Positions 10,815 to 64,000 of a stretch of 64,000 nucleotides of DNA are shown in pieces (the first letter of the stretch is position 1; every line of letters begins with the position of its first letter). The translations under genes were made by a program, and so were the position numbers. Origin of the DNA: an uncultured Gemmatimonadales bacterium (GTDB taxonomy: Bacteria > Gemmatimonadota > Gemmatimonadetes > Gemmatimonadales > GWC2-71-9); NCBI GenBank assembly GCA_963830455.1, contig CAWHMT010000004.1:39431-103430 (forward strand), read 5' to 3'. The notes under the pieces are model-generated. The model made no database searches, was not told the origin of the DNA, and was given only the letters and a program-made list of their open reading frames with translations.

Positions 10815-10824
10815 GACGGCCCTC

Positions 10825-45500: not shown

Positions 45501-45771
45501 CGCGATCTACTCATCCCGCTGGATCGAGGACGCGTCCTTCGTGCGCCTGCAGAACATCACGATCGGGTATGACCTCAACCTGCCGTTCTTGATGCGCACC
45601 GCGCGGAGCGCGAGGCTCTACATGGCGGCGGACAATCTCCTTCTGTTCACGGGTTACTCGGGACTCGATCCCGAAGTCTATTCCGGCACCGGATTGGCAG
45701 TGCGTGGTGTCGATTATCTCGTCTATCCCCGCCCCCGTACGATTACGGGGGGTCTCCGTCTCGTCTTTTAG
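42598..45771 (+). CDS. SusC/RagA-family TonB-linked outer-membrane protein
   Basis: 1057 aa. Carboxypeptidase-regulatory-like domain (GTVRGQVVDSVTRQGLVGVTVQIQGT) and plug (ASITILKDASATAIYGSRASNGVVLVETKRG). Large barrel ending ITGGLRLVF. The start is uncertain: TTG 42598, or ATG 42566 with a GGAGG RBS in another frame. Confidence 0.85.
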   Translation: MALLACTALPLAAQGTGTVRGQVVDSVTRQGLVGVTVQIQGTQRTTVTGNDGTYSLGDVPEGSVVVRATRIGFGPQQQVVAITAGGTVEARFELAPQANLLEPVVVTGYGTTRREAITGSVASVDAAAANVGVKTNVTQMIQGRAAGVEVSLNNGEPGAGAQIRIRGGSSVSARNDPLYVIDGVPIANVATEPDANGWTGNPSLPRNPLNLINPSDIASITILKDASATAIYGSRASNGVVLVETKRGSSGGGPTFEYDGYVSTSSPARSLGVLDGAEYRSFVEGSVAQWRTDSTACVGRPACAAGFADSAAQFNALDPSHLATMGAANTNWEKSVTRQSLTYNQNLSFSGGTENTHYRGSVNYAKEQGVTLSSDLERIQGRLSATHSDIDGRLRLGLNVTSSRVNNTYLTYENQGGFEGGVFENVATFNPTQPVTVTDSTGTRYYEVGGTTIRNPVALANQISNIGSTTRTLGNAEAEFDVARGLTAKINVGLDNSNGARQEYYPIASPLGRALGNGLAQQQDLENNTQTLQTLLTYDGHVGQSNTLNVVGGYEYSKFKTNWVMGRGIGFFTDAYTFHALDAAVTKTTQSSASEARLASFFGRANVGFNERFFLTGVLRYDGSSRFAEGHKWALFPALSGSWNLKQEGFMQGGAFSEFRVRAGWGLQGNPSVDPYTSLITLRSGSDASYPWGDQSQGGVIGSSNGNPDLKWEQTSQYDAAVDFGLWGNRLSGTIEYYHKDTKDLLLTVDVSQPALASTQLRNVGRLSGHGLELSLDALAVSKPGLTWRAGLVFAADKNKVTDLGCGADSTGVKTCPFYESGDVSGQGQSGVRAERVMVCDPSSPGSCPGYALGTFYGPVFVGVDANGQQQFFCTAATTGCVGGKTTIRGNPDARDYRVIGNANPDFTLGFTSNITWKRFDVSFLIHAAIGQDVFNNTALVYSTKSNALQDKGFLKDALSDPIGIHEPAIYSSRWIEDASFVRLQNITIGYDLNLPFLMRTARSARLYMAADNLLLFTGYSGLDPEVYSGTGLAVRGVDYLVYPRPRTITGGLRLVF

Positions 45772-45783
45772 GGAGAGCTGGCC

Positions 45784-47418: not shown

Positions 47419-50400
47419 TTGCTGAAGGCGTACCAAGGAGGGGCGCAGCCATATGCGCCCCTCCTTCTGTTTCTCCTGTCGCTGAGCGCCGCCTGCTCCG
47501 AGAAACCACACGACACCGCTCCACCGCAGCCGGGCAGAGAACTCTTTACGCGCATGCCCTCCGGCTACACGGGCGTCACGTTTGCCAATCGTCTGAGCGA
47601 AACGCACGACTTCAATGTCTTCACCTACCGCAATTTCTATAACGGCGGCGGCGTCGCGCTCGGTGACCTGACCGGGGACGGCCTCCCCGAAATCGTCCTC
47701 ACCTCGAATCAGGACGGTCCGAAAGTCTATCTGAACCTTGGCCGGTTTCAGTTTCGAGACGTGACCGAAGCGGCGCGCGTCGTGGAGCGGGACCGCTGGA
47801 CGACGGGTGTCACGCTCGCCGACGTGAATGGCGACGGGAAGCTCGACATCTACGTGTGCCACGCCGGCGTGAAGCCCGGCTCGGCGCGCGCGAATACGCT
47901 CTACATCAATCAGGGCATGACCGACGGCGTCCCGCATTTCACGGAGATGGCAGCGCAGTACGGCCTGGCCGATACCGGGTACTCGACCCAGGCCGCCTTC
48001 TTCGACTACGACGGCGACGGCGACCTCGACATGTTCCTGATTCGCAACTCCCCGCGGCCCGTCGCGAGCATCGCCGTCAAGAACCAGCGCACCCAGCGCG
48101 ACCCGTTAGGCGGCCACGAGCTCTACCGGAACGACCACGGTCACTTCGTCGACGTCAGCGAGCGGGCGGGGATCTACGGGCCCACGATCGGGTTTGGATT
48201 GGGAATCGCGGTCGGAGACGTGAATCGCGACGGCCGCCCCGACGTCTACATCGCGAACGACTTCTTCGAGCGCGACTACCTCTATCTGAACAACGGGAGC
48301 GGGACGTTTCGGGAGGTCCTTGAGGACGCGCTGCCGGTCTCGAGTTATTTCTCGATGGGCGTCGACATCGCCGACATCGACAACGATGGCTGGCCCGATA
48401 TCTACACGAGCGACATGCTCCCCGAAGACGACTACCGCCTCAAGACGACGCAAGCGTTCGAGCCGTGGACGGTCTATGATGCCAAGACACGCGACGGATT
48501 CGACCACCAGCTCATGCGCAACATGCTGCAGCGCAACAACGGAAACGGCACGTTCAGCGACATCGCCTGGCAGGCAGGGGTCGCGCGCACCGACTGGAGC
48601 TGGGCCGCGCTGCTCGCCGACTTCGACCTCGACGGCAACAAGGACATCTTCGTCGCCAATGGTCTGTCCAGGGACGTGACGTCACAGGATTACATCGCAT
48701 TTCTGTCGAACGATCAAACCCTGCTTGCGGCGACGCGCGGTGGGAAGCAGCGGGTCGATTTCGAGAGCCTGATCGCGGCCATGAGCTCGACCAAGCTTTC
48801 CAACGTTGCGTTCCGCAATCGCGGAGACCTGGCGTTCAGCAACGTGAGCGCGGAGTGGGGACTCGATCAGCCGAGTTTCTCGAATGGTGCCGCGTACGGG
48901 GACCTGGATGGCGACGGCGCGCTCGATCTCGTGGTGAACAACGTGAACGACGAAGCGTTCGTCTACCGCAACAATGCCCGCTCGCAGCGTGTCGGGAACC
49001 GGTTTCTTCAGGTGCGCCTGGTCGGGAGCGGGAGCAATCCGTTCGCGGTCGGCGCGCACGTCACGGTGCGCGCCGGCGGTACCGAATTCGCTCAGGAGCT
49101 CCAGCCGACGCGCGGCTTTCAGTCGAGCGTTGACTACACACTGACGTTCGGCGTCGGTCAGGTGGACACGCTCGAATCGGTGATCGTGGACTGGCCCGAC
49201 GGAAAATCGACGATCGTGTCACCGGTCGTCGCCAATCGGCTGCTCACGCTCCGCGAGGAGAACACCCAGCGAACGCGGGGGGCGTTGCGGCGCGACCGCA
49301 CCGAGCTGCTGCATGACGTCACGGCCGAAGTGGGCCTCGATTTTGTCCACCGGGAGAACGCATTCGTCGATTTCGATCGTGAACCCCTCATGCCCCGTAT
49401 GGTTTCGACCGAGGGGCCGATCGTGACGGTGGGCGACGTCAATCGGGACGGGCTGGACGACTTCTTCATCGGTGGCGCCAAGGAGCAGCCGAGCGCCCTG
49501 TACGTGCAGCGGCCCAACGGCACGTTCACGTCCACAAATCAGGCGTTGTTCGCTCAAGATCAGATCGCCGAAGATCTGGGGGCGGCGTTCCTCGACGCCG
49601 ACGGGAATGGCACACTCGATCTCTACGTCGCGACAGGCGGGACGGAATTCTCCGCGCTCGCTCCAGCGCTCGAGGACCACCTCTACCTGGGGAACGGGCG
49701 GGGCGCGTTCACGAAAGCCGTTGATCTGCCGCCGCTGTTCAACAGCAATTCGCGCGTGGCGGTGTCGGGTGATTTCGTATTCGTCGCGGGGCGGGCGGTG
49801 CCGGGGCGCTACGGCGTCGATCCGAACAGTACTCTGCTCAAGCGAGACTCCGCCGGCCGGTTCACGGATGTCACCGCGCAAGCCGCTCCGGAGCTCGCGC
49901 ATATCGGCATGGTCAGCGACGCGCTCTGGGCCGACGTCGATGGGGATGGCCGGGACGATCTCGTGGTCGTGGGCGAGTGGATGCCTATCACGGTCTTTCA
50001 CAACACGGGAACCAAACTCGAGCGCGTCAAGACACGCGGGCTCGAGCAGAGCGCCGGATGGTGGAACAGGATCGTGGCGGGCGATTTCACCGGCGACGGC
50101 CGCGTCGACTTCGTCATCGGAAACGCAGGACTCAACTTTCGGCTGCACGCCACTGTCGATGAGCCCGCGCGCATGTATATCCGGGACTTCGACCACAACG
50201 GATTTCCAGAGCAGGTGCTCACGACGATCGAGCGGGGAAGCGAGGTGCCGGTCGCGCTGCGGGATGAGCTGACCGCCGTGCTGCCCTTTCTGCAACCGCG
50301 ATATCCAACGTACGTCGATTACGCGCGCCAGAGTGTGCGCGACGTTTTTGGCAGCGCGCTGGACAGCGCGCTCGTCAAGCGCGTCGACACCTTCGCGTCG

Positions 50401-50760
50401 GTACTGGCACGCAACAACGGCGACGGCTCGTTTACACTGGTCCCGCTGCCGCGCGAGGCACAGATTGCTCCCATCTATGGGCTGCTGGCACGGGATTTCG
50501 ACCGCGACGGCAACCTCGACCTGTTGCTCGCCGGGAATCTGGCCGGCGTGCAGCCGGCATTCGGCCCGATGATGGGAAGCTATGGACTGCTGTTGCGTGG
50601 GAATGGCCGCGGCGAATTCGAGGTGGTCCCCGCGACCGAAAGCGGGTTCAACGTGCCAGGACAAACGCGGGACATTCAGCGCCTGCGCACGCGCCGGGGC
50701 GACCTCTACATCGTCGCCCGCAACAACGACCGGCCGCTGTTCTTCAGGCCGCTGCGCTAG
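47419..50760 (+). CDS. CRTAC1-like FG-GAP/VCBS-repeat protein with ASPIC/UnbV domain (lipoprotein)
   Basis: 1113 aa. Lipobox LSLSAAC. Repeats DLTGDGLPEIV, DVNGDGKLDIYV, DYDGDGDLDMF, DIDNDGWPDIY. UnbV block FLQVRLVGSGSNPFAVGAHVTVRAGGTEFAQELQPTRGFQSSVD. A second propeller half follows. Confidence 0.8.
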   Translation: MLKAYQGGAQPYAPLLLFLLSLSAACSEKPHDTAPPQPGRELFTRMPSGYTGVTFANRLSETHDFNVFTYRNFYNGGGVALGDLTGDGLPEIVLTSNQDGPKVYLNLGRFQFRDVTEAARVVERDRWTTGVTLADVNGDGKLDIYVCHAGVKPGSARANTLYINQGMTDGVPHFTEMAAQYGLADTGYSTQAAFFDYDGDGDLDMFLIRNSPRPVASIAVKNQRTQRDPLGGHELYRNDHGHFVDVSERAGIYGPTIGFGLGIAVGDVNRDGRPDVYIANDFFERDYLYLNNGSGTFREVLEDALPVSSYFSMGVDIADIDNDGWPDIYTSDMLPEDDYRLKTTQAFEPWTVYDAKTRDGFDHQLMRNMLQRNNGNGTFSDIAWQAGVARTDWSWAALLADFDLDGNKDIFVANGLSRDVTSQDYIAFLSNDQTLLAATRGGKQRVDFESLIAAMSSTKLSNVAFRNRGDLAFSNVSAEWGLDQPSFSNGAAYGDLDGDGALDLVVNNVNDEAFVYRNNARSQRVGNRFLQVRLVGSGSNPFAVGAHVTVRAGGTEFAQELQPTRGFQSSVDYTLTFGVGQVDTLESVIVDWPDGKSTIVSPVVANRLLTLREENTQRTRGALRRDRTELLHDVTAEVGLDFVHRENAFVDFDREPLMPRMVSTEGPIVTVGDVNRDGLDDFFIGGAKEQPSALYVQRPNGTFTSTNQALFAQDQIAEDLGAAFLDADGNGTLDLYVATGGTEFSALAPALEDHLYLGNGRGAFTKAVDLPPLFNSNSRVAVSGDFVFVAGRAVPGRYGVDPNSTLLKRDSAGRFTDVTAQAAPELAHIGMVSDALWADVDGDGRDDLVVVGEWMPITVFHNTGTKLERVKTRGLEQSAGWWNRIVAGDFTGDGRVDFVIGNAGLNFRLHATVDEPARMYIRDFDHNGFPEQVLTTIERGSEVPVALRDELTAVLPFLQPRYPTYVDYARQSVRDVFGSALDSALVKRVDTFASVLARNNGDGSFTLVPLPREAQIAPIYGLLARDFDRDGNLDLLLAGNLAGVQPAFGPMMGSYGLLLRGNGRGEFEVVPATESGFNVPGQTRDIQRLRTRRGDLYIVARNNDRPLFFRPLR

Positions 50761-51256: not shown

Positions 51257-53286
51257 ATGCGAATGCAATCGCTGTTGCTCGTGCTGGCGGTATCGGCGGC
51301 CCCCGTCGTCGCCCAAACACGCGTTACCTCACCCGACAAGCGCAACGAGGTGCAGGTCGGCATTCACGAGGGCGGGCTCTACTACGTCGTGCAGCGCGAC
51401 GGCACCCCCCTGCTCACGCCGTCGCGGCTGGGGTTCGTGTTCCGCGGCGCCCCGCCACTGCGCGACTCGCTGAGCATCGTCGATTCCAGCCGCAGCACGT
51501 TTGACGAGACCTGGACCCAGCCGTGGGGCGAAGTGCGGCGCGTCCGCAATCATTACAACGAGCTGAAGGTCTCGGTTCAGGAGAACGACGGCGCCGCGGC
51601 GTCAGTTCGTGCTGGCGGTGCGCGCGTTCAACGACGGCGTGGCGTTCCGCTACGAGTTCCCCAGCGCAACCGAATTTGGGTGAGTTCGAAATCATGGACG
51701 AGCTGACCGAGTTTGCGTTCGCCGACAACGCGCGCGCCTGGTCGATCCCGTCCAACCGGCCGCGGCTCGACCGCTCCGAGCAGCTCTACTCCTCCCAGCC
51801 CGTCAGCACGCTCGACAGCGTGCAGACGCCGATCACGATGGAGACCCGCGACGGCAAGACGTTCATGGTGCTGCACGAGGCGAATCTCGTCGACTACGCG
51901 CGCATGAACATCAGGGGTCCGCGCATGGAGAACCGCACGCTGCGCGTCGATCTCGCGCCCTACGCGGACGGCGTGAAGGTGCGCGGCCGTACGCCGTTCA
52001 CCACACCCTGGCGCACGATTCAGATCGCGGATCGCGCCGGCGACCTGGCTCCGTCGGTGCTCGGCCTGAACCTCAATCCGCCGAGCGTCATCGCGAACAC
52101 GGACTGGATCAAGCCGATGAAGTACGTGGGCATCTGGTGGGGGATGCACATCAACACGATGACGTGGAACTCGGGGCCCAAGCACGGCGCCACGACCGCG
52201 AATACGAAACGCTACATCGACTTCGCGGCCGCCAACGGGTTCGGAGGAGTGCTGGTGGAAGGCTGGAACATCGGCTGGGACGGCGACTGGATCCAGAACC
52301 GCAACGCGTTCTCGTTTACGAGAGCCTATCCCGACTACGACATCGTCGAGCTGGCACGGTACGCGAAGTCCAAGGGCGTCCACTTGATCGTGCACAACGA
52401 GACGTCGGGCGGCATCCAGAACTACGAGCGCCAGATCGACAGCGCATTCTCCATGTACGAGCGGCTCGGCCTCGATGCGATCAAGTCCGGCTACGTGACC
52501 GACCTGACCAGTGAAGGCCATTCGCACTGGGGCCAGTTCATGGTCAATCATTACCGGCACGTGATCGAGAAGGCCGCGGAGCATCACATCATGCTGGACG
52601 CGCACGAGCCGATTCACGACACCGGCGAGCGCCGCACCTATCCCAACATGATGGCCCGCGAAGGGGCGCGCGGGCAGGAGTACAACGCCTGGGGCGGCGA
52701 GGGCGGCAATCCGCCCGAGCACGAGACGATCCTGTTCTTCACGCGGATGCTCACCGGGCCGATGGACTTCACGCCCGGGATCTTCGATATCCTGCGCACC
52801 AAGACCGGCCCCGCGCGGCGCAATGAAGACTCGCGCGTGCGCACCACGCTCGCCAAACAGCTCGCGCTGTACGTCGTGCTGTACTCGCCGCTGCAAATGG
52901 CGTCGGATCTGCCGGAGAATTACGAGGGCCAGCCGGCTTTCAAGTGGATCAAGGACGTCGCGGTCGATTGGGACACCAGCCGAGTGATCGACGGCAGGAT
53001 CGGCGACTACGTCATCGTGGCGCGCAAGCAGAAGGACAGCCCGCAGTGGTTCCTCGGCGCGATCACCGATGAAGAAGCGCGCACGTTCGACGTGCCGCTG
53101 ACGTTCCTCGATCCCGGCAAGAGCTACACCGCGGACATCTATGCCGACGGGCCGGGCGCCGACTGGCTCACGAACCCGACGCCGGTGCGGATCACGCACC
53201 GCACGGTGACTCGCGCCACGCGGCTCCACATCGCGCTTGCCAAGGGCGGCGGGCAGGCGATCCGGATTCGACCAGCACAACCTTAA
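51257..53286 (+). pseudogene. GH97 alpha-glucosidase (SusB-like); two +1 frameshifts 60 nt apart
   Basis: Signal MRMQSLLLVLAVSAAPVVAQ...ELKVSVQENDGAA (frame 2). Shift near 51590-51600 gives RQFVLAVRAFNDGVAFRYEFP (frame 0). Shift in CCCC 51659-62 gives AQPNLGEFEIMDELTEF...KYVGIWWGMHI...VLVEGWNIGWDGDW...VHNETSG... (frame 1), continuing to stop 53286. Confidence 0.75.
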
Positions 53287-53365
53287 TGATTTCATCCAAC
53301 AGAATTTCGGGTTTCTTCATGGTTCTTTCTGGACGGTGCCGCATGCCGCCGTAACTTTGCGCGCC

Positions 53366-55465
53366 ATGATCAATCCCGCGGAAATGCGATCCAAAACCGC
53401 GGAGTGGCAGCGCCGCTTGCTCGTAGCGGTAGCCGCTCTGCTGATCTTCGAGACGCTCTCAGGTCTCTCGATCTGGCTGTTGCCATTCAGCATTCCGAAT
53501 CAGGTCGCGGTCGTCCTGCATACCGCGATCGGCCTGATCTGCATCCTTCCCTACGCCTGGTACCAGCTGCGCCACTGGCGCCTGTATCGCGAGCGCCAGC
53601 TCACCCACGTCAAGCTCACCGGCTACTTCTCGATGGTCGCCGCGATCGCGGCCTGCGTCTCGGGAGTCGTGTTGTCGTATCAGGCGCTGTTCGCCGCCCG
53701 CATCGGCTACGGCTGGGATCTGGTCCACATCGTCTCAACGTTCGCGCTGCTCGCGTCTGTGCTGCCGCACGTTCTCAGTCTCGTCTATTACGCACGCCAT
53801 GGGAGCACGGAGACCGCGCTGGAGCTGCGGCGTGCCCAGCGGCAGTTTGGGCGCAGGACGCTGTACGGCACGTTCGCGCTGGGGTTGCTCGTCGCCCTGG
53901 TGGCCATCGCCTATCGGCCCGTGCGCCTGAACAACCAGCTGCCGGCCGACTACAGCTACGTGTACGGGCACGACCGGCCGTTCGCGCCGAGTCTCGCGCG
54001 CACGAACACAGCGCAGGCATTCGACGCGCGGTCGCTGGGCGGCTCCAAGTCGTGCGGCGAGGCCGGCTGTCACGAGCAGATCTACGAAGAGTGGTCGGTG
54101 AGCGCCCATCGCTACTCGGCGATGGACCTCGGCTTCCGCGCCATCCAGACGACGATGGGCCAGCAGAACGGGCCGGAATCGACGCGCTACTGCGCCGGCT
54201 GTCACGATCCGATTTCGCTGTTCGCCGGAACGAAGAACCTGTACCGCGACGAGCTGACCAACCCCATCGGCCGGGATGAGGGCGTCTCCTGCATCACGTG
54301 TCACGCGATTCGCGAAACCGACGTCAAGGGCAACGCCAGTTATGTGATCGCGCAGCCGGCGCGCTACATGTTCGAGCTGCGCGAGGGTGAAGGCGCTCGG
54401 CAGCTGCGCAACTTCCTGATCCGCGCCTACCCGCGCCAGCACGTGCGCTCGCTGCAGCACGGCCTCTTCAAGAGTCCCGAGTTCTGCGCCGCCTGTCACA
54501 AACAGTTTATCGACAAGGAAATCAACCAGGTCGGCTGGGTGCAGCTGCAGAATCAGTACGACAATTGGCGCAAGAGCCGCTGGAACGACACCCTCAACCC
54601 GCGGCGCACCGTCGAGTGCCGCGAGTGCCACATGCGGCTCGTGCCCTCCGAGGATCCGGCGCGCGGCGACGACCGCGACTACAACCGCTCGGCGGGCGAC
54701 GGCGCGCATCGCAGCCATCGCTTCCTCGCCGCGAATCAGTTCATGCCCGTCGCGCTCAAGCTGCCCGGCGCGGCGGAGCACGCCGAGCTCACCGCGCGCT
54801 GGCTCCAGGGGCGGATCGACGTGCCCGAGATCGCCGACAAATGGCGTACCGGACCGGCCGTGCCGATCGAGTTGGTGGCGCCGGCGCGCGTGCAGCCGGG
54901 AGAACCGGTCGATCTGCAGGTGCTGATCACGAACAACAAAGTCGGCCACGATTTCCCGACGGGGCCGCTCGACATCATCCAGTCGTGGGTCGAGATCGTG
55001 GTACGTGATCAGAACGGCAACGTGGTCTACGAGACCGGCCAGCGCGACGCGAAGCACTTCATCCGCCCGGGCTCGTTCATCTTCAAGGCCGAGCCGGTGG
55101 ACCAGTACGGCAAGCTGATCGATCGCCACAACCTCTGGGAAATGGTGGGCGTGCGCTACCGCCGCTCGATGTTCCCCGGACAGTCGGACCGCGCCGAGTT
55201 CACGTTCAATTGTCCCGCGACCTCGGCCCGGCCAACCCCAGCGTCGGCGACCGGGGGGGGGGAGATCGGCGATCAGCGCTACGCATTTCGCTCGCCCGCC
55301 GGGCGCGTTACGCGGCTCGACGTCTCCGCCAAGCTGCTGTACCGCAAGGTGGACCAGTTCCTCTTGAACTTCCTGTTCGGTGAGTCGTCCGGCATCACAG
55401 CTCCTGTGACGGTGGTCTCGGAGGACACCCGGAGCATCGAGGTCGTGCCCCAGCGCGGGCAGTAG
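53366..55465 (+). CDS. membrane-anchored multihaem c-type cytochrome (N-terminal cytochrome-b/DUF4405-like 5-TM domain + penta-haem periplasmic domain)
   Basis: Start ATG 53366 (MINPAEMRSKTAEWQRRLLVAVAALLIFETL...). About 5 hydrophobic helices with conserved His. Haem sites CGEAGCH (CX4CH-like), CAGCH, CITCH, CAACH, CRECH. C-terminal beta-rich region with VGHDFPTGP. Confidence 0.8.
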   Translation: MINPAEMRSKTAEWQRRLLVAVAALLIFETLSGLSIWLLPFSIPNQVAVVLHTAIGLICILPYAWYQLRHWRLYRERQLTHVKLTGYFSMVAAIAACVSGVVLSYQALFAARIGYGWDLVHIVSTFALLASVLPHVLSLVYYARHGSTETALELRRAQRQFGRRTLYGTFALGLLVALVAIAYRPVRLNNQLPADYSYVYGHDRPFAPSLARTNTAQAFDARSLGGSKSCGEAGCHEQIYEEWSVSAHRYSAMDLGFRAIQTTMGQQNGPESTRYCAGCHDPISLFAGTKNLYRDELTNPIGRDEGVSCITCHAIRETDVKGNASYVIAQPARYMFELREGEGARQLRNFLIRAYPRQHVRSLQHGLFKSPEFCAACHKQFIDKEINQVGWVQLQNQYDNWRKSRWNDTLNPRRTVECRECHMRLVPSEDPARGDDRDYNRSAGDGAHRSHRFLAANQFMPVALKLPGAAEHAELTARWLQGRIDVPEIADKWRTGPAVPIELVAPARVQPGEPVDLQVLITNNKVGHDFPTGPLDIIQSWVEIVVRDQNGNVVYETGQRDAKHFIRPGSFIFKAEPVDQYGKLIDRHNLWEMVGVRYRRSMFPGQSDRAEFTFNCPATSARPTPASATGGGEIGDQRYAFRSPAGRVTRLDVSAKLLYRKVDQFLLNFLFGESSGITAPVTVVSEDTRSIEVVPQRGQ

Positions 55466-55469
55466 TCCC

Positions 55470-57989
55470 GTGTTCGATTCGCTGCCCCGCCGCTCACGCC
55501 GCCTCGCGCTCACGGCGACGTTCGCCGGCGTGTTTCTCGCTGTCGCCGGGATCATCGCCTTCGTGGCGCTGCGGCCGCGCGCCGGCTACCAGCCCGGCCA
55601 GAAGGTCGAAGGCCTGACGTCGGACCTGTCGCGCGACCTGCCCGCGGACTACCCGCGCGTCACGTTCGTCGACGTCACGAGCCAGGCGGGGATCCAGTTC
55701 CAGCATTTCTGGGGGGAGCGGACCTCGCAGATCCCTGAGGACATGGGCTCCGGGGCGGCGTGGGGGGATTACGACAACGACGGCTGGCCCGACCTCTTCC
55801 TCGTCAATCTCGCGGGACCGATCACGTTGAGCCCCGATTCGCTGCGCCGCTCGCCGGCGCATTGCGCGCTCTACCATAACAACCATGACGGCACGTTCAC
55901 GGACGTCAGCGCCCAGGCGGGCGTGGACCTGCGCATCTGGGGGATGGGCGCGGAGTGGGGCGACTACGACAACGACGGCCACCTCGATCTCGTCGTCTCG
56001 GCCTACGGCGAGAACGTCCTCTTCCGTAACAACGGCGATGGGACGTTCAGCAATCGCACGCGGGAATCGGGCATCGGCGGCAAGCGTGGATTCTGGTCCG
56101 GCGTCGCCTGGGCTGACTACGACCGCGACGGCTTTCTCGACCTGTACGTCGCCGGGTACGTGCGGTACGCCCGTCCCTCGGAGAGCTTCGCCGCCTCACA
56201 CTACGACGTCGAGAATCCCGTCAGTATCAACCCCAACGCCTTTCCGCCCGAGCGCAATCTGCTGTACCACAACAACCGCAACGGGACGTTCACGGAGGTT
56301 GCGGTGGCGGCGGGAGTGTTGGGGGATCGCGGCAAGAGCCTGGAAGCGGCGTGGGTGGACTTCGATGACGACGGCTGGCCCGACATCTACGTGGCGAACG
56401 ATGTCACCGACAACCAACTGTTCCGCAACCTGCACAACGGCAGGTTCGCCGACGTCAGTCACGAGGCGCGCGTGGCCGACTACCGCAGCGCCATGGGCCT
56501 CGCCATCGGCGACTGGGACGGCGATCAGGACCTCGACATTTTCATCACGCACTGGATCGCGCAGGAGAACGCGCTCTACAATCACGTCAGCAACAAGCCG
56601 CTCGAATTCGAGGACGTCGCCGATCGCTTTGGAGTCGGTCAGATCGCGCTCGACTTCGTCGGCTGGGGGACGTTCTTCTTCGATTACGACAACGACGGCA
56701 AGCTCGACCTGTTCGTCTCCAACGGCCACACCTTTCAGCGCCGCGACGCCCCGCAGCTCCTGGCGCCCGAGACGCCGCAGCTCTTCTGGAACCGCGGGCC
56801 CGAGGACGGCTTCTACAACGTCTCGGCCGCGAGCGGGCCGTACTTCCGCGTGCCCCACGTCGGCCGCGGGGCGGCGTTCGCCGACTACGACAACGACGGC
56901 GATCTCGACGTGGTCGTCGTAAACCACAGCGGCGCCGCCGCGCTGCTGCGCAACGAGGGCGGCAACCGCAACCACTGGCTCAACGTCAGGCTCGAGGGGG
57001 GTGGGGGGGGCCGCCGCAGCAACCGCACCGCCGCGGGCGCAAAGCTGCGGGTGGTGGCGGGGACGCAGGTGTTCATCCGCGAGATCGGCGCGCAGGCCTC
57101 CTATCTCTCGCAGAACGACCTCACCGAGCACTTCGGCCTCGGCGCGCTCACGCAGGTCGACAGCATCGCGGTCGTCTGGCCGAGCGGCGCCCGCCAGGCA
57201 GTCACGAACGTCGCCGCCGGCCAGACCGTGCGGATCGTCGAAGGACGTGACGCCGTCGCGGTGACCGATACAGCGGTGAGCCGCCAGGCGGTGCGCGACT
57301 TCTGGTCGTTGTACCGCGCGGCCACGGCCGCGCGCGTCGAGGGCAGGAGCGTGGACGCGCGTGACGGCTACCGCGCGGCGCGTGAGCTGAATCCACGCCA
57401 CGAGGACGTGCTCTACTACCTCGGCAACATGGAGCTCGAGCTCGGCAATTTCGCTGACGCGGAGACCGCCTGGCGCCGCCTCGTGGAGGTCAACCCCTCG
57501 AGCGCGCGCGCGCACTCGCGGCTCGGCGACCTCTACGCGTGCCCCGACACGGGAGCACCGTGGGATCTCGGGCGCGCGAGGACCGAACTCGCGCGCGCCG
57601 CCGAGCTCAATCGTGAAGAAACGGGCCCGCTCCTTCGCCTCGGCGAGGTCGCGCTGCTCCGCGGCGACTGGAGCGGCGCGCTGCGCCAGTTCGACGCCGT
57701 GATCGTCACGCACCCCAAGAGCGTGGAGGCGCATTTCCTCAAGGGCTACGTCGCTTGGAAACGCGGCCAGCAGGCGCTCGCTGCCACCGAGCTGCGCCAA
57801 GCGGAGGCACTCGCGAACGCGCCGCAACCTGTACCGCAGGCGCCATCGGAAGGCGATACCAAGCAGGGTGCAAGCGGAGCCGCGCCGATGGTCACGCAAT
57901 CGACGCGGTGCCGGTTATTCGGCGATCAATTGGAGCCCTACGCGGACCTCGACCGCCGGATCAAGCAGGCCACCTCACGGCATCAGTGA
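55470..57989 (+). CDS. CRTAC1-like FG-GAP/ASPIC-UnbV protein with C-terminal TPR repeats, N-terminal membrane anchor
   Basis: 839 aa. The GTG start is 4 nt after the cytochrome stop. Anchor LALTATFAGVFLAVAGIIAFVAL. Repeats WGDYDNDGWPDLFL, WGDYDNDGHLDLVV, WADYDRDGFLDLYV. UnbV block WLNVRLEGGGGG...GAKLRVVAGTQVFIREIGAQASYLSQND. TPR region YYLGNMELELGNFADAETAWRRLVEVNP. Confidence 0.8.
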   Translation: MFDSLPRRSRRLALTATFAGVFLAVAGIIAFVALRPRAGYQPGQKVEGLTSDLSRDLPADYPRVTFVDVTSQAGIQFQHFWGERTSQIPEDMGSGAAWGDYDNDGWPDLFLVNLAGPITLSPDSLRRSPAHCALYHNNHDGTFTDVSAQAGVDLRIWGMGAEWGDYDNDGHLDLVVSAYGENVLFRNNGDGTFSNRTRESGIGGKRGFWSGVAWADYDRDGFLDLYVAGYVRYARPSESFAASHYDVENPVSINPNAFPPERNLLYHNNRNGTFTEVAVAAGVLGDRGKSLEAAWVDFDDDGWPDIYVANDVTDNQLFRNLHNGRFADVSHEARVADYRSAMGLAIGDWDGDQDLDIFITHWIAQENALYNHVSNKPLEFEDVADRFGVGQIALDFVGWGTFFFDYDNDGKLDLFVSNGHTFQRRDAPQLLAPETPQLFWNRGPEDGFYNVSAASGPYFRVPHVGRGAAFADYDNDGDLDVVVVNHSGAAALLRNEGGNRNHWLNVRLEGGGGGRRSNRTAAGAKLRVVAGTQVFIREIGAQASYLSQNDLTEHFGLGALTQVDSIAVVWPSGARQAVTNVAAGQTVRIVEGRDAVAVTDTAVSRQAVRDFWSLYRAATAARVEGRSVDARDGYRAARELNPRHEDVLYYLGNMELELGNFADAETAWRRLVEVNPSSARAHSRLGDLYACPDTGAPWDLGRARTELARAAELNREETGPLLRLGEVALLRGDWSGALRQFDAVIVTHPKSVEAHFLKGYVAWKRGQQALAATELRQAEALANAPQPVPQAPSEGDTKQGASGAAPMVTQSTRCRLFGDQLEPYADLDRRIKQATSRHQ

Positions 57990-60900
57990 TCGTTTGACGC
58001 ACCCTGCCTGATGATCCGGGTGTTGTACTCGCGCAGATAGCGCTGCCGCGCGGAGTCCGCCGGGTAGCCGTCGCTCGGGCCGTATGGGTACGACGTGATC
58101 GCGTGATACGGGAGCGGCTCGACCGTCGTGCCGTAGGCCGTGTTCAAGTCGGAATCCTTGATCCAGCCGTCGCTATATAAGAAGAAGGTGCGTTTCCAGC
58201 CGGGGGCCGGCTCCTTCAGGCCCGCGGCGTCGAACGCGACGGTCGCCTCGTCCCCCGGGACCATCACGATGTACTGGTCGTCGCTGTGCTCGAGCAGCGG
58301 CCGCACGCTTCCGAAGCGCGTCGCCGCGCCGGTGATGGGACGCCAGGGCGATTCGCGTGTCACGTCGCTGTAGTCGAACCAGTGGGGACCGTAACGCCCA
58401 CCGCGCCGGTACATCCGCGAGAAGCCGCGGTAGTGTAGATCCCCGGACAGCGGCGTGAGGGTCGTGACCCGCGTGACCGCCGCAGTTGATTCTGGACCGC
58501 CCCGACCGCCGCCGTTTGCGTCGTCCGCCACAAAAGCTTGATCCCAATAGATCTGCATAGACGTCCGCACGCGCACGTGGCGATCCTTCGTCGGGAAAAT
58601 TCCGGCGAGATCGATCACCATCGTCTTGTCCTTCCCCGCCGGGAAGCCAATCATCCCGCGGGGAATCCACCGGTCGCGGGCGTCGCGCACTTCGATCACC
58701 GGCATCTCGGATTTCAGCACCTGCTGTTGCGAGAGGGCGACGTTGATGCTCGCATCGCTCGGGAAGATCCAACCGCGTAGCAACAAATGCGTCCCCGGCT
58801 CGCCAGCGTGCTCGTCCAGCTCGAGCACCAGCGCGTGCGGCTCGGTCAGGCCTTGATACCGGCGGGGCGTCAAGTTCGAGACGTAGCGGAAATCGTGATC
58901 GGTGAGATCGGCGAGCACGTCCGTGCCGCGTTCATCCACGGCGGATAGCGGTGCCCGGCGGCGGACAACCTGAAACAGCCTCAGGTCGGTTCCTCGCATG
59001 GGGGGGAAACGCTCGTCGACGAATACCGCCACGGAATCCGGATGGTCCACCGCGAGTAGTCGCAGCTGGTCGAGATACGCGGTCTCCCACAGCTCTTCGG
59101 TCACCTGAATGACGTAGCGCCCGTTCCGCGGCCTGAGCGCTTCCCCGGGGATTCGTACGTATTCGAGCGAAGCGCCTGCCGGTGCATACGACATCGCCCG
59201 AGTCCCTAGCCCCGAATCCCTAGCCCCCATGATTCCCACCGGCATCCCGAGCGCGCTTTGCCACATGATGTCGGTGACGAATCGGAACTGTTCGCCATCC
59301 CATGTATAGAGGAAAGCGCACGAGCCCTTGAGCTGCTGCAGCTCGAGCACGTCGGCGTCGGTTCCGGGGAAGTAGACCGTCTGCGGCACGCCGTTGGTCC
59401 ATTGCACGCGCAGCACGTCGGCTTTGAGGTGAGTGCCAAGCCCGATCTGGGTGAGGCGGTCGGTCACGACGCGTGTTTGATAGAGCTCGCCGGCCCGAAC
59501 CTCGAGCCTGGCGCCGATGCCGAAGGTGTTGTTCTTGCTGCTGCCCGTGCGCAGCGCGGTGAGCTGGATGCGCATGCCGAGGTGCGCGTTGCCGCCGTCG
59601 TTGCGGAGGAAATGCGCACCGCTTCGGGTGCCCAGCAACAGGTCCTGGTCGCCGTCGCCGTCCAGGTCGCTCGCGAGGACCGGCCCAATGCCGGCACGTC
59701 TGATGTCCGGCGGCAGCAGTGCCGTGCGATCCTCGAACCGGCCGCCGCGCCTATTATGGAAGAGAGACGCACCACTCGCGCCCGCCGTGAACAGATCCAG
59801 CCACCCGTCGTTGTCGTAGTCGAAAAAGCGGGCTTCCCCGCCGGAGCGCGCCGTGACGCCCGCGCGCGTGTCTCTCGTGAATGTCCCCGTGCCGCTATTG
59901 TGCCACAGGCCCGTACCGGCGAGGTAGAAATCGAGCGCGCCGTCATTATCGTAATCGCCCACCGCCACGGGACCGGGTCCGTGGATCATGTCCGCGGCTC
60001 GGACGAACCCTTGCACCGCATCATTGAGGAACAGGCCCTGCGTTCCGGTCGCGCTCGCGATCACGACGTCCACGCGCCCGTCGTCGTTGACGTCCGCTAC
60101 GCCAGCGTCGCTGCCGCCCTGCAGGATGCCGGCGGCATTGGGAAGTAGCGCGAAGGTGCCGTCCGCGTTGTTGCGGTACACCACGCGCGATTCGTTCCCG
60201 ACGAGGAGCAGATCCAGGTCGCCATCGTGGTCCAAATCGACGAACAGGATGCGAGTCGCGCTCCCGACCTCTCGAACACCCGCGCGCTCGGTCACATCCT
60301 CGAACTGCTGCCCTTCACGATTGCGCACGAGATAGCCGAGGTGGTCGGTGCCGATGGCGAACAGATCCAGCCAGCCGTCATTGTCGTAGTCGACGAACGT
60401 CGCGACGAGCGCTCCGCGCGGCAGCGGGACCGGCATGCGCGCCGTGACATCCGTGAGGAACCCCTGCTGCATCGCATACAGCTGCACCTGTTGCCCCACG
60501 GCGAGCAGCAGATTGTCGATGCCGTCACCGTCGTAGTCGCCCAGCGCGAGTGCGGTTGGCGCTTCCGACCGCTCCGGCAGTCCGCTCTCGTTGGTCACGT
60601 CGGTGAATTGCACTGGCGCGGCGGCCGGTGGCGGGCGAATGCCGCGCATCGTGATCAGCGTCTGCGGGCTGAACGAGAACGTCTGATTGCCGGCGATCGG
60701 CCCTTCGGTCCAGTTGACCAGCGCGAGCGACGCCTGGTAGGGCGCGGTGACCTCGATGGCACGGCGGAAGCGGTCGAAGGCCATGCGCGCTTCGGGGTGG
60801 CGGCTCGCGCGCAGTGCCCGGATCGCGGCGTCGAGATGCGGCTGAGCGTCGCGTGGAGCCTCCGGACGCAGCCGGCGGATGTCCTCCAGGTGGCGCAGCG

Positions 60901-61447
60901 TGCTGTCGCTCTCCCCGAGGCGCAGCAGCACGTCGGCCAGCTCGATGCGCACGGCGAGATTCGACGGCACTTTCGCCAGCAGCTGCCGCAGGCGCCCGGC
61001 GTAGGCGGTATCACCACCCGTCTGGCGGTCGAGCTGCGCGAGTGTGTACAGCACCCGCGCATCGGGCTCGATATCGGCGAGCACGCGCCGTGCCTCCTCG
61101 GGCCGCCCGGTCAGCGCGTACAGCCGGGCCAGGATGAGCGCGATCTCCGGACTGCGCGGGTCGAGCCGGCGAGCGCGCTCGAGCTGCTCCTCCGCGTCGG
61201 CGAAGCGGGTGGGGCCGCTGCGCAGATAGGTGAGGCCGAGGTTGGCGTACCCCGACGCATCCTTGGGCGCGAGCGCGATGACCTGCTTGAACTCCTGCTC
61301 CGCTTCGCTCAAACGGCCGCGCTCCAGCTCGGCGAGCCCGACGGTGCGCGCCGTCAACAGCGCGCCCTGATCGATCGGCTTCTCCTGACAGGCAACGATT
61401 GCGAGGAGCAGGAACGCGCCCGTATAATGCCTGCGCTTGCGTAGCAC
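57983..61447 (-). CDS. large lipoprotein: N-terminal TPR region + FG-GAP repeats + ASPIC/UnbV + ~480-aa uncharacterised C-terminal region
   Basis: Start chosen at GTG 61447 (VLRKRRHYTGAFLLLAIVACQEKP, lipobox; purine-rich GAGGAGAAAGAGAAGA upstream). TPR: GYANLGLTYLRSG..., FG-GAP: LGDYDGDGIDNLLL, FVDYDNDGWLDLF, FVDLDHDGDLDLLL. UnbV: HLGMRIQLTAL...GIGARLEVRAGELYQTRVV. The first about 190 codons of track ORF 57983-62023 are rejected. Confidence 0.8.
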   Translation of the reverse strand: MLRKRRHYTGAFLLLAIVACQEKPIDQGALLTARTVGLAELERGRLSEAEQEFKQVIALAPKDASGYANLGLTYLRSGPTRFADAEEQLERARRLDPRSPEIALILARLYALTGRPEEARRVLADIEPDARVLYTLAQLDRQTGGDTAYAGRLRQLLAKVPSNLAVRIELADVLLRLGESDSTLRHLEDIRRLRPEAPRDAQPHLDAAIRALRASRHPEARMAFDRFRRAIEVTAPYQASLALVNWTEGPIAGNQTFSFSPQTLITMRGIRPPPAAAPVQFTDVTNESGLPERSEAPTALALGDYDGDGIDNLLLAVGQQVQLYAMQQGFLTDVTARMPVPLPRGALVATFVDYDNDGWLDLFAIGTDHLGYLVRNREGQQFEDVTERAGVREVGSATRILFVDLDHDGDLDLLLVGNESRVVYRNNADGTFALLPNAAGILQGGSDAGVADVNDDGRVDVVIASATGTQGLFLNDAVQGFVRAADMIHGPGPVAVGDYDNDGALDFYLAGTGLWHNSGTGTFTRDTRAGVTARSGGEARFFDYDNDGWLDLFTAGASGASLFHNRRGGRFEDRTALLPPDIRRAGIGPVLASDLDGDGDQDLLLGTRSGAHFLRNDGGNAHLGMRIQLTALRTGSSKNNTFGIGARLEVRAGELYQTRVVTDRLTQIGLGTHLKADVLRVQWTNGVPQTVYFPGTDADVLELQQLKGSCAFLYTWDGEQFRFVTDIMWQSALGMPVGIMGARDSGLGTRAMSYAPAGASLEYVRIPGEALRPRNGRYVIQVTEELWETAYLDQLRLLAVDHPDSVAVFVDERFPPMRGTDLRLFQVVRRRAPLSAVDERGTDVLADLTDHDFRYVSNLTPRRYQGLTEPHALVLELDEHAGEPGTHLLLRGWIFPSDASINVALSQQQVLKSEMPVIEVRDARDRWIPRGMIGFPAGKDKTMVIDLAGIFPTKDRHVRVRTSMQIYWDQAFVADDANGGGRGGPESTAAVTRVTTLTPLSGDLHYRGFSRMYRRGGRYGPHWFDYSDVTRESPWRPITGAATRFGSVRPLLEHSDDQYIVMVPGDEATVAFDAAGLKEPAPGWKRTFFLYSDGWIKDSDLNTAYGTTVEPLPYHAITSYPYGPSDGYPADSARQRYLREYNTRIIRQGASNDH

Positions 61448-64000
61448 TCTTCTCTTTCTCCTCTTCGTTCTTGCGAGCTGCCGTGGCGGCGCGCCGCCGC
61501 CGCTGTTCGAGCGCGTCGCGCCGGAAGCGAGCGGCGTGCACTTCGCGAACACGCTGCCCCGGGATTCCGGGTCGGGGGGGCGGCGGCGGCGGTGAACATC
61601 GTGAACTACCTGTACTACTACAACGGCGGCGGCGTCGCGGCGGGCGACGTGGATGGTGACGGTCTGGTCGATCTGTATTTCACGTCGAACCTGGGCAGGA
61701 ACCGCCTCTACCGCAACCTCGGTCAGTTTCGATTTGAAGATGTCACGGATCGCGCCGGCGTCGCGGACTCCGGCGGCTGGAAAAGCGGCGTGACCATGGC
61801 CGACGTGAACGGCGACGGGCGTCTCGACATCTACGTGTCGGGCGTGGACGATGAGATGCGCGGCCGCAACGTGCTCTACATCAACAACGGCGACGGCACG
61901 TTCAGCGATCGGACAGACGAGTTCGGCCTGGGCTTCGCCGGATACGGCACCCAGGCCGCGTTCTTCGATTACGACGGCGACGGCGATCTGGACATGTACC
62001 TGCTGAACAGCTCGACGCTGCAACGCGTCGCGCGTGCGCAGAGCACAAGCCGCACCGCGCGCGACGCCGCGGCCGGAGATCGGTTGTACCGCAATGACGA
62101 CGGACGCTTCGTCGACGTGAGCGAGCAGGCCGGCATCTATGGTGGGGTCGAGGGATTTGGGCTAGGGATTGGGGTCAGCGATCTGAATGTCGATGGCTGC
62201 CCAGACATCTACGTCGCGAATGACTTTCCCGAGAATGACTTCCTGTATCTGAACAACTGCGACGGCACGTTCCACGAAGCGATTACCGAAACCACCGGCC
62301 ACACCAGCCGCTTCTCGATGGGCGTAGACGTTGCCGACTTCAACAACGACGGTCGTCCCGACATCGCCGTCGTGGACATGCTCCCCGACTCGGAGCCGAT
62401 CCTCAAGACCGCGGCGAGCGCGGAGAGCTACACGCTGTTCAACCTGAAGCTCGCGGCCGGCTATCACCCGCAGTACGCGCGCAACACGCTGCAACTGAAC
62501 CGCGGCGTGGCCCGCGGGAAGCTGCGCTTCAGCGAGATCGGCCAGCTTGCCGGTATCGAGGCCACCGATTGGAGCTGGGCGCCGGTGTTCGCCGACTTCG
62601 ATAACGATGGCTTCAAGGACCTGTTTGTCACCAACGGGATCTATCGGCGTCCCAACGATCTCGACTACATCGCGTCCCTCGACAGCGGCGGTCCGCCGAT
62701 GCTAGGCAGGATGCCGAGTGTACCGTTGGCCAAGTACGCGTTCCGCAACAATGGTGATCTCACATTTGGGAATAGGGCTGGGGACTGGGGACTAGGAGAT
62801 GCAGGATTCTCGAACGGCGCCGCGTACGCTGATCTCGATAACGATGGCAACCTCGATCTCGTGGTGAACAACCTGAATGCCTCGGCGTCCATCTACCGTA
62901 ACCTCGGTGCAAGCGGGCACCACCTGCGCATTGTCTTGCGCGGCAGCGGGGCGAACACGGCCGGCATCGGCGCGAAAGTCACGGTCACAACGCAAGGCCG
63001 TACGCAGTTGCTCGAGCAGAGCCCAACCCGCGGCTTCCAATCGTCAGTAGATCCGGTGCTGCACGTTGGGCTGGGGACGTCCACAACGGTCGATTCGCTC
63101 ACGGTGACGTGGCCCGATCGCCGCCAGCAGACGCTCACCAGTTCTTGGTGTCGACACAACGATCACGTTGTCGCAGGCCGACGCGACCGTCCAACCGTCC
63201 AACCGTCTAACCGTCCAACCCCTGTTTTCCGATATCACCGCACAGTTCGATATCACCTATAGACACCGCGAGAACACGTTCTTCGACTTTGGTCGCGAGC
63301 CGCTGATGCCGCATTTGCTCTCGACCGAAGGGCCGGCGCTAGCCGTTGCGGACGCCAATGGCGACGGGCTCGACGACATCTACGTGGGCGGCGCGAAGTG
63401 GCAGGCCGGTGAGTTGTGGCTGCAGCGTGCCGACGGCCGCTTCCGCGCCAGCGCGCAACCCGCCTTCGCCGCCGACAGCCTGCATGAAGACATCGATGCG
63501 GCGTTCGTCGATGTCGACGGGGACGGCGACCGCGATCTCTACGTCGTGAGCGGCGGGAACGAATTCTCGGAGGGCGAGCCGCTCCGCGACCGGCTGTATC
63601 TGAATGACCGGGGCACGTTCCGTCGCGGCGAGCTCCCCGACTTCGCTCACAACGGCTCGTGTGTGGTCCCGGGCGATTTCAATCGCGACGGGCACGTCGA
63701 TCTGTTCGTCGGGAGCCGCGTGGTTACGCGAACGTACGGCGCGACGCCGCGCAGCTATCTGCTGCAGGGCGATGGGACGGGACACTTTCGCGACGTCACA
63801 CCCGACTTGATCGCCAATGCCGGGATGGTGAGCGGCGCCGCCTGGGTGGACGGCAATCTGATCGTCGTAGGCGAATGGATGCCGGTGAAGATCTTCCACC
63901 AGCAAAACGGGGGCTGGGTAGCGGACTCATTGCCAGCCACCACGGGATGGTGGAACAGCATCCAGACCGCCGACTTGAACCGTGACGGCCGGCCTGACCT
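61437..64000 (+). pseudogene. CRTAC1-like FG-GAP/ASPIC-UnbV lipoprotein (paralog of 47419-50760); two frameshifts, 3' end beyond window
   Basis: TTG 61437: MRSTLLFLLFVLASC (lipobox) RGGAPPPLFERVAPEASGVHFANTLP. Shift within 61557-61592 (C4/G7 runs) gives ...VNIVNYLYYYNGGGVAAGDVDGDGLVDLYF...LRIVLRGSGANTAGIGAKVTVTTQGRTQLLEQSPTRGFQSSVD...VTWPDRRQQTLT. Shift near 63131-63140 gives PVLGVDTTITLSQADATVQPSNRLTVQPLFSDITAQFDITYRHRENTFFDFGREPLMPHLLSTEGPALAVADANGDGLDDIYVGG..., open to 64000 (own translation; not in the ORF track). Confidence 0.7.
63187..63218 (+). repeat. tandem 8-nt repeat, 4 copies (CCGTCCAA CCGTCCAA CCGTCTAA CCGTCCAA) inside the CRTAC1-like gene
   Basis: Read directly. The unit length is not a multiple of 3. 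In the productive frame it encodes TVQPSNRLTVQP. In one alternative frame the variant third unit creates a TAA stop. Confidence 0.85.

Follow-up and report, generated by a model that had tools for sequence, protein, structure and literature searches.

The Geobacter cytochrome CbcL combines a di-haem-b membrane domain and a periplasmic multihaem c domain in one polypeptide and presumably connects quinones of the membrane pool with acceptors in the periplasm; to our knowledge, no propeller partner of CbcL is known. The DNA analysed here, a stretch of 64,000 nucleotides from an uncultured Gemmatimonadales bacterium (contig CAWHMT010000004.1; hereafter the window), encodes a 699-residue fused b/c-type cytochrome of similar architecture and, directly behind it, an 839-residue CRTAC1-like propeller/TPR protein. 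The likeness to CbcL is one of description: CbcL has a b domain of the HydC/FdnI type, carries nine c-haems and serves extracellular metal respiration. We know of no role for either half of the pair. The literature searched contained no description of it, and joined FG-GAP/CRTAC1 proteins with multihaem cytochromes only in a paper on anammox evolution. A membrane b/c cytochrome with a near-obligate CRTAC1 partner is unprecedented, and the pair points to an undescribed two-part redox machine. We put the probability that the two genes encode two subunits of one inner-membrane redox complex at roughly 0.5.

Each half of the cytochrome has possible counterparts among described proteins. The penta-haem family (5ZE8, Geobacter ExtKL, Gsu2801 and the cable-bacteria PHCs) shares with its periplasmic part the succession of five c-haems and an Ig-like domain. 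None of these proteins, which are soluble or lipoprotein-like, has a membrane domain for b-haems such as we propose for the 699-residue protein. The first haem site also differs, being CX4CH here and CXXCH in 5ze8, and no CRTAC1 partner has been reported for the family. Sites of the CX4CH type are normal haem sites in cytochromes c3. Three of the proteins, c552, ExtKL and Gsu2801, have been grouped as a penta-haem family with an Ig-like domain and an unsettled function (PMC11976967). The membrane part, with four histidines on two helices and two putative stacked haem sites for transmembrane electron transfer, resembles DUF4405/MsrQ/PepSY-like cytochromes. Purified DUF4405 proteins bind haem b, and their four central histidines are arranged as in MsrQ (PMC11334425). 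Six helices are reported for DUF4405 and five are predicted here. In addition, the DUF4405 type is coupled to flavinylated or molybdenum partners, whereas the membrane domain described here is fused to c-haems.

The second protein has its closest described counterpart in vertebrate CRTAC1/LOTUS (9ETN), with which it shares the fold and the domain order of a seven-bladed FG-GAP calcium propeller followed by ASPIC/UnbV, at about 20% identity. The vertebrate proteins are secreted or linked to glycosylphosphatidylinositol and reportedly bind receptors; they have no TPR, membrane helix or redox partner, unlike the 839-residue protein. A CRTAC1 gene is also embedded among the multihaem genes of hydrazine-synthase-like clusters, and the beta propeller of hydrazine synthase provides a precedent for a cofactor-less integral subunit of a haem enzyme (PMC12758564). 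The haem proteins of these clusters differ from ours and form soluble complexes, unlike the membrane cytochrome pair. The clusters are an independent hint that the propeller family works with haem proteins.

To examine how the pair is conserved, we scanned one genome per species with the cytochrome. More than 570 loci matched and the best 80 were kept, 73 of which have at least 600 nt of downstream DNA. The first-pass annotation, made on the window alone, had proposed a functional link between the two genes, and synteny had been set beforehand as the test that could refute it. Synteny proved to be conserved, as a propeller orthologue follows the cytochrome in 73 of 73 loci. In 70 of these the genes are directly adjacent, the median gap being estimated at about 8 nt, and in three the propeller gene comes after one inserted gene, which encodes 449 residues without a Pfam match. 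Orthologous propellers are 47-82% identical, while paralogues in the same loci reach 30-38%. In the reverse test, the cytochrome lies upstream in 18 of the 19 orthologue-level propeller loci with enough upstream DNA.

The pairing extends well beyond one phylum. Phyla other than Gemmatimonadota contribute 22 of the best 80 cytochrome loci, with carriers among Cytophagia, Cyclobacteriaceae, Flammeovirgaceae, Saprospiraceae, Rhodothermales and Calditrichota as well as Marinimicrobia, Fidelibacterota, KSB1 and Krumholzibacteriia. Altogether the pair is found in at least some 570 species-level genomes and in thousands of metagenome proteins, at 60-65% identity between phyla. When the flanking open reading frames (ORFs) of the best 80 loci were clustered, no families recurred but those of the cytochrome and CRTAC1; the third most frequent was present in 7 of 80, and the neighbours are heterogeneous between genomes. 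All matches examined were metagenome-assembled genomes (MAGs) or metagenomes, and no cultured carrier was identified among them; a cultured-carrier genome scan with a Cyclobacteriaceae orthologue yielded nothing new, and the protein search returned MAG and metagenome entries only. Two soil metatranscriptome contigs span the gene junction (X25 at 55129-55768 and X27 at 55363-55515), consistent with one transcript in close relatives.

The arrangement also recurs at large evolutionary distance. In Acidobacteriota, a CRTAC1 paralogue of about 40% identity is preceded by a 24-28%-identical cytochrome in 25 of 49 paralogue-level loci. One of these (L116) encodes, head to tail, the cytochrome, a CRTAC1 protein after a gap of 0 nt, and a 1155-residue TPR-propeller protein; here the TPR domain forms the C-terminus of a 972-residue cytochrome, and the 560-residue CRTAC1 protein has none. 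In Calditrichota the TPR part is a separate 290-residue protein with its own anchor, and this protein has a counterpart (KGEGATKSG) of the EGDTKxG motif found in the tail of the 839-residue protein. Across phyla, the TPR domain thus resides in the propeller protein, in the cytochrome or in a stand-alone protein, which is architectural evidence only. Further afield, a 32%-identical cytochrome overlaps an FG-GAP gene upstream, and a 42%-identical one (L248) is followed by a gene for a PQQ_2-type beta-propeller (10174-11478) and then by the CRTAC1 gene, so the module can carry a second, different extra gene. We considered the TPR of the acidobacterial cytochrome as a strict fusion orthologue of the TPR tail and rejected it: the similarity is generic to TPRs and the EGDTK...RC signature is absent.

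It is very improbable that the adjacency merely reflects an operon of convenience whose products do not work together. The case for a partnership does rest on gene order and RNA contigs. However, 73 of 73 pairings over many phyla with gaps of a few bases, the recurrence at 24-42% identity and the movement of the TPR domain between the two proteins all count against such an explanation.

The cytochrome itself belongs to a large family. More than 3,500 homologues were found, the 120 best listed being 64-95% identical over the full length, and an exhaustive profile-free search of a library clustered at 50% identity returned 3,038 clusters at E<=1e-3 and 483 at E<=1e-30. None of the searches made turned up a characterised member that combines the membrane b domain with five c-haems. 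We aligned 41 orthologues (A1; 64-92% identity) and, for the wider family, 88 representatives; motifs were counted in the 87 full-length representatives among the best 150. The first-pass description of a 699-residue protein with about five transmembrane helices, conserved histidines, one CX4CH and four CXXCH sites was borne out. Its start at 53366 is backed by orthologues of 693-703 residues that align over 100% from there.

In the AlphaFold2 model the membrane domain has helices at residues 4-38, 45-74, 81-109, 115-145 and 149-182, and full-length representatives mostly show four to five hydrophobic segments ahead of the first haem. H52 and H70 on helix 2 and H121 and H135 on helix 4 are invariant in the 41 orthologues. 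In a five-helix topology, H52 and H121 lie close to the periplasmic face and H70 and H135 close to the cytoplasmic face. Among the 88 representatives, H52/H121 are retained wherever the residue aligns, while H70/H135 are lost jointly in about nine and singly in only four. Such joint loss is the pattern expected if each pair ligates one b-haem. We therefore propose that the four intramembrane histidines form two putative bis-His sites for two b-haems. Since an odd number of helices precedes the haem motifs and the positively charged N-terminus is inside, the haem-c domain is expected to be periplasmic.

The five c-haem sites are C230-x4-C235-H236, C276xxC279H280, C309xxC312H313, C374xxC377H378 and C418xxC421H422. 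All their cysteines and histidines are invariant in the 41 orthologues, the sites are present in 86-88 of the 88 representatives, and 84 of 87 full-length sequences have exactly five motifs. Candidate distal ligands H248, H359, H451 and H528 are found in 86-87 of 88. A fifth candidate, H588, is present in 58 of 88, including the 699-residue protein, and is replaced by Arg in 20. All five haems of this protein thus have candidate bis-His ligation, and its motifs, exported domain and conserved distal ligands are those of a predicted multihaem c-type cytochrome. Pfam Cytochrome_C554 matches with 32.4 bits. The Ig-like domain carries the motifs NNKVGHDFPTGP and DRHNLWEMVGVRYRR, invariant in the 41 orthologues. 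Of the solved structures, T. tepidum penta-haem c552 alone is significantly related to the periplasmic part, and it is the top PDB profile match (5ze8; E 9e-5 over 85 residues). Foldseek also ranks 5ze8 first (E 3e-4; TM 0.14/0.23 with a model of pLDDT 51.5, the predicted local distance difference test), followed by Ig-fold proteins. The NCBIfam model for ExtKL (NF040886) matches residues 227-263 only, with 25.9 bits against an equivalog cut-off of 250. The conservation and the co-loss of the His pairs lend support to the b-type plus penta-haem-c architecture proposed in the first-pass annotation.

The AlphaFold2 model of the 839-residue protein is good (pLDDT 83.8). Residues 7-34 form a single long membrane helix with the hydrophobic stretch LALTATFAGVFLAVAGIIAFVAL. 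The anchor is followed by the propeller and UnbV domains (about 60-590), a TPR solenoid (602-782), a disordered conserved stretch and a final helix. Pfam FG-GAP_3 (172.7 bits) and UnbV_ASPIC (66.6 bits, residues 521-587) score above their cut-offs, and FG-GAP and several TPR families match as well. The propeller has seven blades and seven Dx[DN]xDG-type calcium loops. Murine CRTAC1 (9etn_A) is the best match both by Foldseek (E 1e-25, TM 0.74 on the target) and by PDB profile search (E 2e-25). By these sequence and fold matches, the protein is assigned to the CRTAC1/ASPIC-UnbV family. An FG-GAP/UnbV protein with an anchor and a TPR tail, starting 4 nt downstream of the cytochrome, had been described in the first-pass annotation, and we found it as described: the TAG stop ending at 55465 is followed by the spacer tccc and a GTG start at 55470.

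No redox enzyme is among the Foldseek neighbours of the 839-residue protein, a motif scan found no haem motif in it, and a comparison of cytochrome-linked with cytochrome-free relatives revealed no clade-specific Cys/His cluster in the propeller. Vertebrate CRTAC1/LOTUS is reported as a binding protein. Because the protein has neither haem motif nor clade-specific Cys/His cluster and vertebrate CRTAC1 is a reported binder, we treat the propeller as a cofactor-less module that probably binds rather than catalyses. Clade-specific propeller residues that might mark a cofactor or cytochrome contact were also sought and are unconvincing, the invariant residues being chiefly calcium-loop Asp common to the whole CRTAC1 family.

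In the mechanism we propose, the cytochrome subunit would act as an electron wire. An outer b-haem on His52/His121 and an inner one on His70/His135, in helices 2 and 4, would relay electrons through the membrane, with the quinone pool or a cytoplasmic donor at one end and the five periplasmic c-haems at the other. This c-haem chain would be of the penta-haem type known from T. tepidum c552 and Geobacter ExtKL, with the Ig-like domain at its end. The propeller/TPR subunit, presumably in contact with the cytochrome, would be anchored alongside by one helix and carry no redox cofactor. Its calcium-loaded CRTAC1-type propeller would bind whatever ligand or partner the haem chain acts on, and its TPR domain would hold the complex together or recruit further proteins. 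Our guess is that the substrate is periplasmic and glycan-linked or otherwise polymer-bound, and that electrons flow outward from menaquinol; the first-pass annotation had expected a quinol-oxidising electron-export module. Cytoplasmic donors may also feed DUF4405/MsrQ-type cytochromes, and electrons could run inward instead. The cell-surface system that had been suggested earlier found no support, as both proteins are anchored N-terminally in the inner membrane and a conserved outer-membrane conduit is missing: no outer-membrane barrel or outer cytochrome is conserved beside the pair in the best 80 loci, which sets it apart from porin-cytochrome systems.

Several observations weigh against a two-subunit complex. 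Three distant cytochrome relatives have no propeller neighbour, and propellers 49-51% identical to ours exist without a cytochrome, one of them in a SusC/SusD/GH2 locus; the propeller is thus not intrinsically cytochrome-dependent. The AlphaFold2 model of the cytochrome is poor (pLDDT 51.5) and leaves the haem region unmodelled, so that the haem-ligand geometry and any open site cannot be read from it. Pfam DUF4405 (PF14358) matches the 699-residue protein with 16.9 bits, below the cut-off of 26.7. It is matched weakly, at E<=0.01, in 13 of the 41 orthologues, and existing records annotate Bacteroidota orthologues with PF14358 or PF01292; a DUF4405 assignment of the membrane domain is only suggestive. 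Finally, the RNA contigs are from relatives 90-95% identical, and DNA carry-over may contribute to them. We favour the complex because of the near-obligate pairing, the distant recurrence, the shuffling of the TPR domain, the RNA contigs and the conservation and co-loss of haem ligands.

The TPR domain is also the basis of the main rival, which we regard as unlikely. Here the cytochrome alone would be the enzyme or respiratory module for a small soluble periplasmic substrate, such as a nitrogen, sulfur or selenium oxyanion, and the propeller/TPR protein would be its dedicated assembly, maturation or stabilising factor, with the TPR gripping the cytochrome, with or without its haems, in the manner of CcmI or NrfG. 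In CcmI/CycH and NrfG, a TPR domain comparable to that of the 839-residue protein recognises a specific c-type cytochrome. In line with such a role, the TPR tail matches the CcmH/CycH TPR family (TPR_CcmH_CycH, PF23914) in 32 of 41 orthologues, the TPR carried by the acidobacterial cytochrome reaches 46.8 bits where the CcmH/CycH cut-off is 42, and a TPR accompanies the cytochrome even without an adjacent propeller gene (P0170). However, the PF23914 matches are weaker than those of generic TPR families, which score much higher, so the CcmH/CycH match may be cross-talk, and no haem-lyase genes are adjacent, unlike in the known systems. A chaperone role would also leave a strongly conserved calcium propeller of 530 residues unexplained. 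As for a soluble substrate, the replacement of H588 by Arg in 20 of 88 could leave one haem open in part of the family, and ExtKL and T. tepidum c552 have reportedly been linked to selenite/tellurite and sulfur chemistry (PMC5877670; PMC11976967). Against this stand the candidate bis-His ligation of all five haems of the 699-residue protein and the distance of its ExtKL score from the equivalog cut-off (25.9 vs 250 bits).

The question of what the propeller binds leads to two further proposals, both anticipated by the first-pass annotation, which had named polysaccharide- or metal-bound substrates. Either substrate is a guess, and the only hints of a glycan are the lectin-like structural neighbours and a propeller in a SusC/SusD/GH2 locus. 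As a sub-case of the two-subunit complex, the propeller may bind a periplasmic oligo- or polysaccharide while the haem chain supplies or removes electrons to modify it oxidatively or reductively. Enzymes that cleave polysaccharides oxidatively are served by electron donors, and the pair would be the counterpart of these donors in the inner membrane. After CRTAC1, the next Foldseek propeller matches are fungal GlcNAc lectins (4tqm, 4up4, 2bwr), close propeller relatives lie in SusC/SusD loci (one within the window and one, L106, with GH2), glycan genes abound in the window (GH29, GH78, GH97, trehalase), and some genomes have GH16/GH30, GH3 and TonB-receptor genes close to the pair. Yet the lectin similarity is fold-level only (15-17% identity), the propeller shows no sign of a catalytic metal site, and no conserved glycan gene adjoins the pair, 7 of 80 loci being the most that any other family reaches. 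Only some six of the best 80 cytochrome loci contain a TonB-dependent receptor, and the pair does not behave as a SusC/SusD-linked system. We consider redox-assisted glycan processing doubtful. The same low expectation attaches to a broader idea, that bacterial CRTAC1/UnbV propellers hold the substrate, or provide catalysis, as one half of a periplasmic redox enzyme of a new class. The dedicated membrane cytochrome would then feed electrons to a polymer bound on the propeller, or drain them from it, the likeliest polymer being a glycan.

Alternatively, the acidic calcium-type loops could capture Fe(II), Mn(II) or another cation for oxidation or reduction by the haem chain, which we judge improbable. 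The seven Dx[DN]xDG loops with their many invariant Asp would suit such a function, and multihaem proteins commonly handle metals; by analogy, the FoxEYZ iron-oxidation genes encode a cytochrome, a propeller and a membrane protein. However, these loops are the ordinary structural calcium sites of all CRTAC1 proteins, including those linked to polysaccharide utilisation loci (PULs), and no conserved metal transporter or outer-membrane cytochrome lies nearby in the best 80 loci.

If the partnership in one inner-membrane complex is real, it would provide the first testable bacterial functional context for the large orphan CRTAC1/UnbV family, and an extra path by which electrons leave the membrane in Gemmatimonadota, Acidobacteriota, Bacteroidota and their relatives, which dominate many soils and sediments. 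Hundreds of bacterial species from soils and the sea carry the pair, which also turns up in RNA from soil. Should the propellers indeed be part of a redox enzyme class, the CRTAC1/ASPIC-UnbV domain would gain its first biochemical function, and abundant soil and marine bacteria would prove to have an unrecognised respiratory or carbon-processing branch.

Table 1. Coordinates of the cytochrome-propeller pair, its domains and related genes in the window.
Feature	Position	Strand	Basis or remark
Fused b/c-type cytochrome gene, 699 aa	53366..55465	+	ATG at 53366; within ORF 53237-55465
Cytochrome membrane domain, residues 1-182, five helices	53366..53911	+	AlphaFold2 model
Region of five c-haem attachment sites	54053..54631	+	Motif scan
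CX4CH site	54053-54073	+	Motif scan
CXXCH sites	54191-54205, 54290-54304, 54485-54499, 54617-54631	+	Motif scan
Beta-rich (Ig-like) cytochrome C-terminal domain, residues ~495-699	54848..55465	+	Model strands
CRTAC1-like propeller/TPR gene, 839 aa	55470..57989	+	4 nt past cytochrome stop
N-terminal membrane anchor of 839-aa protein, residues 7-34	55488..55571	+	AlphaFold2 helix
Seven-bladed FG-GAP propeller and UnbV/ASPIC, residues ~60-590	55647..57239	+	Pfam, Foldseek
TPR domain (residues 602-782) and conserved tail	57273..57989	+	Pfam, alignment, AlphaFold2 model
Accessory 1154-aa lipoprotein, lipobox IVAC	57983..61447	-	ORF, Pfam
CRTAC1 paralogue, lipobox LASC, partner of 1154-aa gene	61437..64000	+	Three-frame translation; runs off window
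TonB-dependent-receptor Plug-only ORF, 158 aa	50757-51233	-	Signal/lipoprotein-like start, no barrel
PUL-like unit: SusC-like 1057 aa, SusD-like 544 aa, 1113-aa propeller	42598-50760	+	
Double FG-GAP/UnbV protein, 1113 aa	47419-50760	+	Directly after SusC/SusD

The window contains further propeller genes (Table 1). Two additional FG-GAP/UnbV lipoprotein genes had been thought to flank the pair and to belong to the same unit. Both genes exist; they do not flank the pair, as both lie downstream, and the one starting at 61437 has at least two frameshifts, near 61560 and 63150, and is read in a third frame to the window end. The 1154-residue protein consists of TPR, an FG-GAP propeller, a weak UnbV match and a 455-residue C-terminal domain, and its gene is convergent with the pair, overlapping it by 7 nt. 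Membership of the same unit was not borne out. A lipoprotein of this type is found near the cytochrome in 24 of the best 80 cytochrome loci and immediately downstream in about 16 of the 25 acidobacterial loci with a distant pair, and it was these three-gene operons that had made it look like a third subunit. Conversely, the cytochrome lies within 10 kb of only 5 of the 80 closest relatives of the 1154-residue protein. These relatives mostly adjoin a CRTAC1 paralogue of their own, divergently as in the window, an arrangement conserved in most Gemmatimonadota loci among the 80. We thus rejected the lipoprotein as an obligatory third core subunit; it is a loosely linked accessory outside the core.

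The 455-residue C-terminal region of this lipoprotein (57986-59350, minus strand) is an unnamed conserved domain. It had no Pfam match at E 10, and the PDB matches of the protein were to TPR and CRTAC1 structures only, while the region is 61-83% identical across the 80 closest Gemmatimonadota loci (the best of more than 570 matches). The fourth FG-GAP/UnbV gene, earlier placed in a SusC/D locus, was confirmed there; the SusC/SusD genes at 42598-47418 serve this separate 1113-residue paralogue. The Plug ORF may encode a plug protein that works on its own, or be what is left of a larger gene. The GH97 glycoside hydrolase gene immediately ahead of the cytochrome (51257-53286, plus strand) is split into two overlapping ORFs, 51257-51706 and 51523-53286, by a frameshift at about 51600. 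The frameshifts in this gene and in the gene from 61437 onward suggest indel errors of a long-read assembly or real pseudogenes. The window also encodes a GH29 fucosidase, a GH78 rhamnosidase, a trehalase, a sodium:solute symporter and, at 22047-24512, a multicopper oxidase. A promoter and terminator scan was uninformative.

Several minor features of the pair and its relatives deserve mention. The tail behind the TPR domain of the 839-residue protein carries the EGDTKxG motif, followed by RC with Cys814; Cys691 is also near-invariant. These elements fall within residues 691-839 (57540-57989, plus strand), in a disordered linker past the TPR domain, and could form a disulfide or a docking peptide. 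In some marine Gemmatimonadota (L044 at 10125-11474, also L045 and L056), a gene for a 449-residue protein stands between the cytochrome and CRTAC1 genes. Gemmatimonadota-like copies of 55-66% identity on short contigs (L090, L122, L214 and L224) are labelled as Lentzea, Acidimicrobiia, Actinomycetota and Vicinamibacteria MAGs, labels that probably reflect binning error rather than transfer. Among propellers without a cytochrome, a 49%-identical one lacking the TPR domain (L106, 1057-11097) is placed between SusC/SusD and a GH2 beta-galactosidase, so propellers closely related to the cytochrome-linked one also function in glycan loci. No propeller gene adjoins a cytochrome relative of 36% identity (L250, 41-3406); its neighbours encode a DUF2249/hemerythrin protein and an Rrf2-family regulator, a setting suggestive of nitric oxide or iron/redox stress for that branch.

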